Shown one piece after another: positions 8,340 through 11,102 of a stretch of 25,586 nt of DNA. How positions within the stretch are numbered: position 1 is the first letter of the stretch; each line of letters begins with the position of its first letter. The notes beneath the pieces are model-generated. The model was not told the origin of the DNA. It did no database searches and saw only the letters and a program-made list of their open reading frames with translations. The stretch is from a virus. The translations under genes and the position numbers were made by a program. The stretch is from UHGV virus genome UHGV-0108017; one strand, written 5' to 3'.

Positions 8340-8891
8340 ATGAGTCGCACATCCCTGATTAAATTAATCCATGTTGCCCGTCGGGAGCTACAACTCGACG
8401 ACGACACTTACCGCGCTTTTCTGATGCAGAAAACGGGCAAAATCAGTTGCCGCGAGCTTACGGTTACGCAACTGGAACAGGTGCTCGATGCCATGAAAGA
8501 ACGCGGCTTTAAGAAGCTGAATAAATACCCCCGTCGCCGCTTTAAGGGACATGTCACACCCCGCGAGAAGGTGTATAAAATCTGGCAGCAGATGGCAGAA
8601 GACGGTTTTATTACCGATGGCGGTGATGTGGCGCTGGACAGATATGTTCAACGCCTGACCGCGAAACGCAACGGCGGACAGGGTGTTTCCACACTGGCGT
8701 GGTGTCATGGCGACACGCTGCTGACAGTCCTCGAAACACTCAAGCAGTGGCACATCCGCTGTATTCGTGAAGCCTTTTCCCGTCACGGGCTTCCGTTGCC
8801 GGTCAGTCCGTCCGGTCGTGAACTGCGCGGCTATGATGCCATGACGGCGGCTTATGCCCATGCCAGAAAGACACGGAGGATGGCACAATGA
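8340..8891 (+). CDS. gemA: GemA-like protein (Mu gp16 family)
   Basis: 183 aa directly upstream of and overlapping mor, as in Mu; N-terminus MSRTSLIKLIHVARRELQLDDDTYRAFL resembles the GemA family as recalled; GGAGG RBS. Confidence 0.65.
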   Translation: MSRTSLIKLIHVARRELQLDDDTYRAFLMQKTGKISCRELTVTQLEQVLDAMKERGFKKLNKYPRRRFKGHVTPREKVYKIWQQMAEDGFITDGGDVALDRYVQRLTAKRNGGQGVSTLAWCHGDTLLTVLETLKQWHIRCIREAFSRHGLPLPVSPSGRELRGYDAMTAAYAHARKTRRMAQ

Positions 8892-9277
8892 CGGAAGATT
8901 TATTTGGTGATTTGCAGGATGACACCATCCTGGCACATCTTGACAATCCCGCAGAGGATACGTCACGCTTTCCGGCACTGCTGGCGGAGCTGAACGATTT
9001 ACTACGCGGGGAATTGTCCCGGCTGGGTGTTGATCCTGCCCATTCACTGGAGATTGTTGTGGCTATCTGTAAGCATCTGGGCGGCGGTCAGGTCTACATT
9101 CCACGCGGTCAGGTTCTGGACTCGCTGATTCGGGATTTGCGTATCTGGAATGATTTTAACGGTCGCAACGTCAGCGAACTGACCACCCGTTATGGTGTCA
9201 CTTTCAATACGGTTTACAAGGCCATTCGCCGGATGCGACGGCTGAAATACCGCCAGTACCAGCCCTCACTTCTGTAA
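8888..9277 (+). CDS. mor: Mor-like middle-operon transcriptional activator
   Basis: 129 aa; C-terminal region is clearly paralogous to the C-like protein at 10070-10492 (GG-Q-YIP-G...RD...FNGRN..EL); ATGA-coupled to gemA. Confidence 0.8.
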   Translation: MTEDLFGDLQDDTILAHLDNPAEDTSRFPALLAELNDLLRGELSRLGVDPAHSLEIVVAICKHLGGGQVYIPRGQVLDSLIRDLRIWNDFNGRNVSELTTRYGVTFNTVYKAIRRMRRLKYRQYQPSLL

Positions 9278-9282
9278 ACAGT

Positions 9283-9308
9283 AAAGCCGGTTAATCCGGC
9301 TTTTTTTA
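9283..9308 (+). terminator. rho-independent terminator after mor (end of early operon)
   Basis: Stem AGCCGG (9285-9290) / CCGGCT (9296-9301), loop TTAAT, followed by a 7-T run. Confidence 0.7.
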
Positions 9309-9354
9309 CGCCCTCAATATCCTGTGATGAATAACCGTACCGGGGGAAATCATC

Positions 9355-9573
9355 ATGGGTAAAGGCTGGAATGCATCCTTTCATCTTGGCAGACGTGAGC
9401 GGCTGCGTCAGGAGGTTTTGCACCGTGTCGCCGGTGGGCCACGGCCTGCGCCCCGCGACTATACCGGTCATGATGGCACCCACGGCAGTTATTACATGAA
9501 AGGCTGGCAGTCAGTTGATATGCCGGAAATTCTTCATCATTGCCTGCTTTACAGGGAGAAACATGATGTCTGA
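9355..9573 (+). CDS. questionable small ORF at the start of the middle region
   Basis: 72-aa ORF with an odd composition; may be non-coding if the middle promoter lies here. Confidence 0.25.
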   Translation: MGKGWNASFHLGRRERLRQEVLHRVAGGPRPAPRDYTGHDGTHGSYYMKGWQSVDMPEILHHCLLYREKHDV

Positions 9574-9928
9574 GCGTTCTGCTCGTCAGTGGCCTGATTT
9601 TTTATCGGTGGTGTTACTGGCGCTGTTATTGTGGATAAGTCTGTTTTGTGGCTGGCGCGCGCTGATGTTTTGCTGTGCCTCGGTTTTCAGTGTTGCTTTA
9701 TGTGTTGCCGGTGATTGTCTGGATGCGCTGATAATGAGCTGCCGGGTGCCTGAACATTTTGCCCGGTTCGTCTGGCCTCTGACCTGGCTGGGGAGTCTGT
9801 CCGGGCTGGGATTAGCCGTGATGGCAACGTCTCAACTGAAAACGGGTCCTGAGCATGTCATCTGGGCGCTGGCCGGATTGCTGACGTTCTGGCTCTCCTT
9901 TCGTTTTCGCGCTCGTCTGTTCGGGTAA
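9563..9928 (+). CDS. predicted multi-pass membrane protein (middle operon)
   Basis: ATG 9563 with GGGAG RBS; hydrophobic segments LSVVLLALLLWISLFCGW, VFSVALCVAG, LGLAVMATS, VIWALAGLLTFWL; Cys-rich. Confidence 0.5.
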   Translation: MMSERSARQWPDFLSVVLLALLLWISLFCGWRALMFCCASVFSVALCVAGDCLDALIMSCRVPEHFARFVWPLTWLGSLSGLGLAVMATSQLKTGPEHVIWALAGLLTFWLSFRFRARLFG

Positions 9929-9937
9929 AGGGGCACC

Positions 9938-10057
9938 ATGTACAGAAAATTCAGTGATGAATGTTTCGGGCCGTCCACGCTGATTAGTGCGATAAAAGTG
10001 ATTGCCCTTGTGGTTCTGATAACCATCAGTGCCGTGGTGTATCTTTCTGTCTGTTAA
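9938..10057 (+). CDS. small single-pass membrane peptide (39 aa)
   Basis: ATG 9938 with AAGGGG 6 nt upstream; MYRKFSDECFGPSTLISAIKVIALVVLITISAVVYLSVC; not in the ORF track (below its length cutoff). Confidence 0.4.
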   Translation: MYRKFSDECFGPSTLISAIKVIALVVLITISAVVYLSVC

Positions 10058-10069
10058 CCGGGGGAAAAT

Positions 10070-10492
10070 ATGCAGCATGATTTATTTGAACACGATCCGG
10101 CAATTCGCCAGTTAATCGGACATATTGATAACATCCCGGCCCCGGAACTGGAATCACGCTGGCCCCGTTCGGTGGTTGATCTGATTGATGTTCTGGAAAA
10201 CGAACTGAAACGCCAGAACGTCAGCAATCCCCGTGAGCTTGCCCGTAAACAGGCCGTTGCCCTGTCCTGTTTTCTGGGCGGACGGCAGTTTTACATCCCC
10301 TGCGGCGATACGATCCTGACCGCGTTACGCGACGATTTGCTTTACTGCCAGTTCAATGGTCGTAACATGGAAGAACTGCGTCGCCAGTATCGCCTGTCCC
10401 AGCCGCAGATCTACCAGATTATTGCCCGCCAGAGAAAGCTGCATACACGACGTCATCAGCCTGATCTGTTCTCACCTGAAAGCCAGAAATAA
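10070..10492 (+). CDS. C: C-like late-gene transcriptional activator (Mor/C family)
   Basis: 140 aa; paralogous to the Mor-like protein; sits immediately upstream of the lysis/late region as in Mu. Confidence 0.8.
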   Translation: MQHDLFEHDPAIRQLIGHIDNIPAPELESRWPRSVVDLIDVLENELKRQNVSNPRELARKQAVALSCFLGGRQFYIPCGDTILTALRDDLLYCQFNGRNMEELRRQYRLSQPQIYQIIARQRKLHTRRHQPDLFSPESQK

Positions 10493-10513
10493 CCGGCATC
10501 CTGCCGGTTATTT
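10491..10513 (+). terminator. terminator-like hairpin after C
   Basis: Stem AACCGGCA (10491-10498) / TGCCGGTT (10502-10509), 3-nt loop, followed by ATTTCC (weak U-tract). Confidence 0.4.
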
Positions 10514-10516
10514 CCT

Positions 10517-10583
10517 GTCACCATAATCCCGCACCTGCCATCTGATTTTTTAGACTGCCATCAGAGCATTTTTTCAGGGAAGC
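10517..10583 (+). promoter_or_regulatory. candidate C-dependent late promoter upstream of lys
   Basis: Contains ATAATCCC and TCCCGCACCT (10527-10536), a 10-mer repeated upstream of gene I (18111-18120). Confidence 0.4.
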
Positions 10584-11102
10584 ATGATGGCGGGGATACC
10601 AAAAAAACTGAAAGCCGCACTGCTGGCGGCAACGATTGCCGGTGGCAGTGTGGGTGGTTATCAGGAAATGACCCGTCAGTCTCTGATCCATCTGGAAAAT
10701 ATCGCTTATATGCCTTACCGCGATATTGCCGGTGTGCTTACGGTCTGTGTGGGACATACCGGGCCGGATATCGAAATGCGCCGTTACAGCCATGCGGAGT
10801 GTATGGCTCTTCTCGACAGTGATTTAAAACCGGTTTATGCGGCAATCGATCGTCTTGTCAGGGTGCCGCTGACGCCATATCAGAAAACGGCGCTGGCAAC
10901 GTTTATTTTCAACACCGGTGTTACCGCATTCAGTAAATCAACGCTGCTGAAAAAACTCAATGCCGGTGATTACGCCGGAGCGCGTGACCAGATGGCCCGC
11001 TGGGTGTTTGCCGCAGGCCATAAATGGAAAGGACTGATGAACCGTCGCGAAGTGGAAATGGCTATCTGGAATATCAGGGGGGCGGATGACCTTCGCCAGT
11101 AA
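10584..11102 (+). CDS. lys: endolysin, phage lysozyme (GH24-like) with SAR-type N-terminus
   Basis: E-x8-D-x5-T catalytic spacing (ENIAYMPYRDIAGVLT); weakly hydrophobic Gly/Ala-rich N-terminus LKAALLAATIAGGSVGG. Confidence 0.8.
   Translation: MMAGIPKKLKAALLAATIAGGSVGGYQEMTRQSLIHLENIAYMPYRDIAGVLTVCVGHTGPDIEMRRYSHAECMALLDSDLKPVYAAIDRLVRVPLTPYQKTALATFIFNTGVTAFSKSTLLKKLNAGDYAGARDQMARWVFAAGHKWKGLMNRREVEMAIWNIRGADDLRQ

Follow-up and report, generated by a model that had tools for sequence, protein, structure and literature searches.

The window analysed here (the whole stretch of viral DNA, 25,586 nt in length) is, judged from its sequence, a phage of the Mu/D108 type that is about 99% identical to Mu in the region of interest: positions 8800–10650 are 98.8–99.0% identical to Mu, D108 and Mu_3F6, and each window coordinate equals the Mu coordinate plus 107. 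In the annotated Mu record the genes and signals run gemA, mor, 'middle promoter, activated by Mor', terminator, 18, 19, 20, C, second terminator, Plys and endolysin. The window has the same order, with the annotated middle promoter falling at 9270–9340, and it shares both the series mor-18-19-20-C-lys and the length of the middle transcript with Mu; in contrast, its left 4.3 kb is unlike Mu. As a whole the window is mosaic, in that 1–4330 matches the Yersinia phages vB_YpM_5 and vB_YpM_6 and has no match to Mu or D108 (as opposed to 4330–25000). Its middle operon with genes 18–20 is of the Mu/D108 type, as opposed to the endolysin-first type of vB_YpM_5. The features at and after the junction of the early and middle operons are given below, with signed numbers counted from the start of the middle transcript.

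8888–9277, plus strand: mor (129 aa), closing the early operon (open reading frame list; Pfam Mor, E 4e-33; stop codon TAA at 9275–9277)
9274–9279, plus strand: proximal UP-element subsite GTAAAC (-57 to -52), for the RNA polymerase alpha CTD; includes the mor stop codon (PMC4390567 Table 3)
9280–9295, plus strand: Mor binding site AGTAA-AGCCGG-TTAAT (AGTAAAGCCGGTTAAT), a 16-bp imperfect dyad at -51 to -36, identical to Mu (PMC4287176, PMC4390567)
9283–9307, plus strand: hairpin ending the early transcript as an intrinsic terminator; its stem is AAAGCCGG/CCGGCTTT, with TTAAT as the loop and a T-run that reaches 9307 (RNA fold; TransTermHP)
9318–9323, plus strand: -10 hexamer TATCCT (-13 to -8), inferred as the best TATAAT match at the right distance from +1
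9321–9330, plus strand: 5′ arm of the inverted repeat, CCTGTGATGA (-10 to -1), which holds TGATGA and is not transcribed from the middle promoter, Pm
9331, plus strand: putative start of the middle transcript (+1), an A, transferred from Mu via primers
9342–9346, plus strand: Shine–Dalgarno (SD) sequence of gene 18, GGGGG, in the loop of the candidate hairpin (a ribosome-binding site is annotated at the matching Mu position)
9350–9359, plus strand: 3′ arm of the inverted repeat, TCATCATGGG (+20 to +29), which holds TCATCA and the gene 18 ATG at 9355–9357
9355–9573, plus strand: gene 18 (72 aa), opening the middle operon (PF26867 Phage_Mu_gp18; phrog_2121; purifying selection)
9566–9928, plus strand: gene 19, membrane protein, overlapping the end of gene 18 (Mu annotation, +107; phrog_4975)
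9938–10057, plus strand: gene 20, 39-aa membrane protein (Mu annotation; phrog_19823)
10070–10492, plus strand: C, activator of the late genes and final gene on the middle transcript (open reading frame list; Pfam Mor, E 9e-34; Mu annotation)
10486–10516, plus strand: terminator after C, end of the middle transcript (fold -19.8 kcal/mol; annotated in Mu)

The early operon ends with mor, which lies immediately upstream of Pm and encodes a protein of the Pfam Mor family with 99% identity to Mu Mor (128 of 129 residues; residue 76 is V in the window and A in Mu). Its N-terminus, MTEDLFGD (8888–8911), retains the DLF motif. The N-terminal DLF of Mor has recently been reported to be a beta-clamp-binding motif, and in the same study Mor L5A could not activate Pm (PMC12867686). 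The original prediction held that an intrinsic terminator closes the early operon just after mor, which is borne out by both the fold of this RNA (-13.9 kcal/mol, z -3.6) and TransTermHP, which calls the same hairpin a terminator in the Mu record. The element is a G+C-rich stem-loop followed by a U-run, built from an 8-bp stem with five G-C pairs, a 5-nt loop and seven Ts. These Ts double as positions -30 to -24 of Pm, and the hairpin (9283–9307) shares its 5′ half with part of the Mor site. A simple terminator scan of the window did not call the early hairpin, probably because extension of the stem into A/T pairs shortens the T tail. An Rfam search returned only a sub-threshold sroD match, located on the terminator, and a literature search for the terminator name 't9.2' gave no match. 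A 21-nt form of the hairpin, GCCGGTTAATCCGGCTTTTTT, also turns up in unrelated genomes, among them those of Bacteroidota, Ignavibacteria and Marinobacter (L102–L170), where it is presumably an ordinary terminator of independent origin. As the 21-nt hairpins in the genome_contigs scan come mostly from such unrelated organisms, the motif alone is not specific for a Mor site.

The numbering of the promoter is anchored twice and independently on published Mu work. The wild-type bases at -57 to -52 are GTAAAC (PMC4390567 Table 3), corresponding to window 9274–9279, and primers MLK7 and JM1 from the Howe-laboratory papers can be placed directly: the reverse complement of MLK7 (+10 to -9), CTGTGATGAATAACCGTAC, is window 9322–9340, while JM1 (-87 onward) begins at 9244. 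Both anchors agree, which puts +1 at A9331. The Mor site has been described as a pair of 5-bp inverted repeats around a G/C-rich spacer of 6 bp, with its centre at -43.5 (PMC4390567). The Mor dyad spans -51 to -36, the Mor footprint -56 to -33 and the footprint of Mor with RNA polymerase -61 to +14 (PMC4287176). In the window, this 16-bp imperfect dyad is found around the same centre and with the same sequence as in Mu, next to a proximal UP subsite at -57 to -52. The -10 hexamer TATCCT is accompanied by neither a -35 hexamer nor an extended -10, as it is preceded by CAA and not by TGn; a consensus promoter scan of the region called no sigma-70 promoter. In published Howe-laboratory data, Mu Pm fragments spanning -62 to +10 and -98 to +10 give 990–1120 units, compared with 1000 for -98 to +46, and mutations upstream of -57 have no effect. 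The latter matches the limits of conservation in relatives with Mor proteins that are 88–100% identical, in which the conserved block spans exactly -56 to -5, with flanks diverging from -57 upstream and from -4 downstream. On the upstream side it is the 3′ end of mor that diverges; on the downstream side, a second class of relatives, type B, in which a GH108 endolysin gene comes first, carries unrelated sequence.

In all 14 distinct Mu-like lineages compared, the more distant contigs included, a -10-like hexamer keeps a constant distance of 32 nt from the Mor-site core, with A2 and T6 invariant. The T-run in these sequences is 7, 8 or 9 nt long (as seen in the 45 nt after GCCGGTTAATCCGGC, L036–L101), and the spacer that follows shortens equally. 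The spacer thereby compensates for T-run length, such that the hexamer always starts 32 nt downstream of the leading G in GCCGG. In one prophage (contig IMGVR_UViG_2531839192_000008, which appears both as L025 and as L079), a partial tandem duplication affects the Mor site and terminator at about 2410–2480 of L025, with GCCGGTTAATCCGGGAATCCGGCTTTTTTTACGCCCTCAAT followed by a second full copy, resulting in two candidate Mor sites ahead of a single -10 hexamer. [quoted passage not shown] They differ from Pm in activator and site sequence, and Plys, from its sequence, lacks an inverted repeat reaching the initiation region. Plys does carry a 6-bp inverted repeat of its own (TCTGAT 10541–10546 and ATCAGA 10560–10565) around the -10-like TAGACT at 10551–10556, but unlike the repeat at Pm, it stops short of the endolysin SD and start codon.

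In the stretch that separates mor from gene 18, just two positions differ from Mu: 9311 (C for T, at -20) and 9346 (G for A, at +16). The interval -98 to +46 of Mu Pm is otherwise identical in the window. With two base differences in the promoter and a single residue in Mor, the published Mu experiments transfer directly to the window. The +1, the footprints and the activity data used here are all Mu values, and we assume that this phage would behave like Mu despite the C at -20 and the G at +16. The base at -20 is C in the window and in all type-B promoters, and T in the Mu-type sequences retrieved. The G at +16 makes the gene 18 SD GGGGG in the window, compared with GGGGA in Mu.

Taken together, the region is almost certainly the early–middle operon junction of phage Mu, containing the known terminator and the Mor-activated Pm. 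The early transcript would stop at the hairpin and U-run at 9283–9307. Mor, a product of this transcript, would then bind AGTAA-N6-TTAAT (9280–9295), centred at -43.5 in place of a -35 element, and bring in sigma-70 RNA polymerase, with the alpha CTD contacting GTAAAC (9274–9279) and sigma contacting TATCCT (9318–9323). Transcription would start at A9331 and proceed for about 1.18 kb, covering 18, 19, 20 and C and stopping at the terminator that follows C. Published Mu experiments supply the footprints of Mor and RNA polymerase, the +1 and the sufficiency of -62 to +10; the near-identity to Mu, the coordinate mapping, the conservation of -56 to -5 and the coding constraint on gene 18 come from the present analysis. 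That a Mor-dependent middle promoter lies here, as had been proposed, is thus well founded on the near-identity to Mu Pm and the mapped published coordinates, with the qualification that these coordinates are carried over from Mu. The early terminator and Pm are already known and belong to textbook Mu biology. The proposed distance of roughly 1.2 kb also holds: counted from 9331, the terminator that follows C (about 10513) is reached after approximately 1.18 kb, in agreement with a middle transcript of 1.2 kb in Mu.

A start at 9331 makes the open reading frame at 9355–9573 the first gene of the middle transcript, preceded by a 24-nt leader, and the Mu literature also treats gene 18 as the first gene of this transcript. 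The original prediction described some 250 bp of low coding quality here and considered the 72-aa frame probably untranslated, neither of which fits the sequence: the interval is gene 18, which has an SD and homologues with 64–68% identity in Klebsiella, Enterobacter, Citrobacter and Pluralibacter, with length kept at 72–75 aa and 34 invariant columns. Differences from the copy in a Klebsiella phage are distributed 13/15/44 over codon positions 1/2/3, with a pN of 0.20 against a (saturated) pS of 0.79, indicating purifying selection. In distant Mu-like prophages of Klebsiella, Enterobacter, Citrobacter, Pluralibacter and E. coli (L030–L035 and L004), a GH108 endolysin gene stands immediately ahead of the gene 18 homologue and is itself preceded by the core of the Mor site and terminator. 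Gene calling in the fetched stretches of these prophages gave no second Mor/C gene. From this arrangement, gp18 may be linked to lysis, and the separate middle operon of Mu may be a derived arrangement.

What the original prediction singled out as the Mor operator is a dyad of TGATGA (9325–9330, at -6 to -1) and TCATCA (9350–9355, at +20 to +25, on the gene 18 start codon), from which the promoter would fire downstream, leaving the frame at 9355–9573 as an untranslated leader. The dyad is present with exactly the coordinates and the 19-nt spacer given for it, and activators of the Mor/C family do bind dyads. However, both arms lie outside the Mor footprint (-56 to -33) of the mapped promoter, and their geometry is wrong, with 6-bp arms 19 bp apart compared with the 5-bp arms 6 bp apart of the Mor site. 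The dyad is also not required for activity: the published fragments ending at +10 lack TCATCA and are nevertheless fully Mor-dependent and fully active, which shows that it is not the Mor operator. Neither is it conserved along with the promoter, as type-B relatives keep the promoter yet lose the dyad, with TGATGA changed to TGTTGT and TCATCA to GCAACA. Nor is it above chance, because perfect 6-bp inverted repeats (spacer 3–30) occur about three times per 250 bp in the window and once in 9309–9562, while at least one is found in 70% of shuffles of the latter interval. Together with the purifying selection on gene 18, which argues against a leader role, these observations leave this model with next to no chance of being right. 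TGATGA/TCATCA has no part in Mor binding, and the fragment 9309–9400, which had been suggested for EMSA, lies wholly outside the Mor site.

As RNA, the dyad grows into a 10-bp stem in which CCUGUGAUGA (9321–9330) pairs with UCAUCAUGGG (9350–9359), two G-U pairs included. The 41-nt hairpin folds at -15.0 kcal/mol (z -2.6), whereas the leader of RNA initiated at Pm is unstructured (z +1.5). The 5′ arm ends at -1, and RNA started at Pm is consequently without it; only RNA that reads through the terminator would hold both arms. An arrangement with a 5′ arm upstream of the native start and a 3′ arm on the translation initiation region is what fold-back inhibition calls for. It recurs in all 14 distinct Mu-like lineages, chosen by their exact Mor-site core and thus blind to the sequence after it, each of which has an inverted repeat of its own, with the 5′ arm at or just after the -10 hexamer and the 3′ arm abutting or covering the SD or AUG. 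When arms are swapped between lineages, own pairs have a mean duplex energy of -9.1 kcal/mol compared with -6.4 kcal/mol for foreign pairs (0 of 20000 permutations as low), and opening the region from -13 to +6 around the start codon costs +6.4 kcal/mol with the own -23 to -1 segment compared with +2.7 kcal/mol with a foreign one (0 of 20000 as high), although the lineages are related and neither permutation count is a true probability. The opening cost ranks first among the 14 for the Mu type (+6.3 kcal/mol), while the type-B lineage shows only +1.9 kcal/mol.

The pairing also appears to be kept by compensatory change, of which the alignment-based part concerns endolysin-first lineages only. 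In an ungapped alignment of 19 endolysin-first sequences, anchored solely on the promoter offset and the SD and not including the Mu type, 83.7% of cells pair, compared with 25–53% when the partners are slid. In these lineages, five of the eight inner pairs show compensatory changes, and covariation is 0.321 compared with 0.153 after shuffling (0 of 500). In Mu-type sequences, the sole stem variant found is a change of G-C to G-U, with three other variants in the loop; the one new Mu-type variant that a metagenome scan contributed is a loop change. RNAalifold found no structure on a plain MAFFT alignment of the leaders, as variable loops misaligned the arms. A contiguous-stem statistic was dropped as too permissive (control mean 5.2 bp against 7.1 bp observed). 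The distant gene 18 homologues were unusable as a test of the Mu-type stem, because all of them lie behind the endolysin gene and not directly behind the promoter. Rfam holds no family matching the inverted repeat, and in the papers searched neither fold-back control in Mu-like phages nor a repeat across the start site was found described.

One way to read the repeat is that it has no function of its own, the dyad being a by-product of complementarity between the -10/discriminator and the start-codon context. We give this reading an even chance. It agrees with the chance frequency of the 6-bp repeat, with promoter activity being independent of the repeat in the constructs ending at +10, and with the lack of an Rfam family at the site. 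What it handles poorly is that every relative has complementary arms specific to its lineage at one shared position, along with compensatory changes, a pattern that is hard to obtain by chance. Alternatively, the stem may insulate gene 18 by folding back, burying its AUG on terminator read-through RNA and thereby silencing translation, while RNA from Pm remains translatable; we regard this as possible but somewhat doubtful. In its favour are the contrast between the hairpin and the Pm-initiated leader, the recurrence of an own repeat in the 14 lineages, and the agreement of the swap test, opening cost and covariation on own pairing; moreover, variation in the Mu-type stem is confined to a change that keeps its position paired. 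Against this, the effect in type B is small, +1 has been mapped in Mu only, the relatedness of the lineages weakens the permutation counts, and the covariation test is limited to endolysin-first lineages, with the Mu type outside it. The Mu arms are also constrained by their promoter and start-codon roles, and given this dual constraint, their invariance says little. The published Pm lacZ constructs carry upstream rrnB terminators. Their parent vector, pRS415, makes operon (transcriptional) fusions, and for both reasons these constructs would not have shown fold-back.

The repeat could instead act as DNA, either as a site for a dimeric protein or as a cruciform that modulates promoter opening. 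It does straddle the start site, and Mu middle transcription requires DNA replication (PMC2582627). Nevertheless, complementarity that is kept while the sequence changes, along with the two G-U pairs needed in Mu, fits RNA rather than DNA or protein recognition, and constructs ending at +10 are fully active, which makes a DNA-level role very improbable.

Returning to fold-back insulation of translation, a similar arrangement was reportedly described for insertion sequences such as IS10 and IS50 by Davis, Simons and Kleckner in 1985, under the names fold-back inhibition and 'protection from outside transcription'. There, as at Pm, the promoter is said to lie inside an inverted repeat, such that the native RNA is missing the 5′ arm, whereas transcripts entering from elsewhere fold up and mask the start of translation. 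The phage case would differ in that the gene concerned is the first of a middle or late operon and that the 'outside' RNA would be read-through from the phage's own early operon. Translational insulation is the simplest reading that the compared leaders suggest for the repeat; by it, RNA that runs on from the strong early promoter would be prevented from expressing the first middle or lysis gene. Put in general terms, and held tentatively, Mu-like phages may place their Mor-dependent promoter inside an inverted repeat, allowing leaked early RNA to fold over the start codon or SD of whichever middle or late gene comes first, with TGATGA/TCATCA as the Mu version.

The main value of this analysis is a corrected annotation, in which the Mor site overlaps the terminator, the middle transcript starts at 9331 and gene 18 is real. 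The element itself is a known one, for which the promoter had been placed roughly right, the operator misidentified and gene 18 wrongly dismissed. The inverted repeat is a modest new lead, with the comparison of related leaders suggesting a fold-back role. If true, fold-back would be a phage counterpart of the inhibition seen in insertion sequences, adding a translational layer to the early-to-middle switch of Mu, and it would explain how Mu-like phages avoid premature expression of middle or lysis genes when early transcription leaks through.
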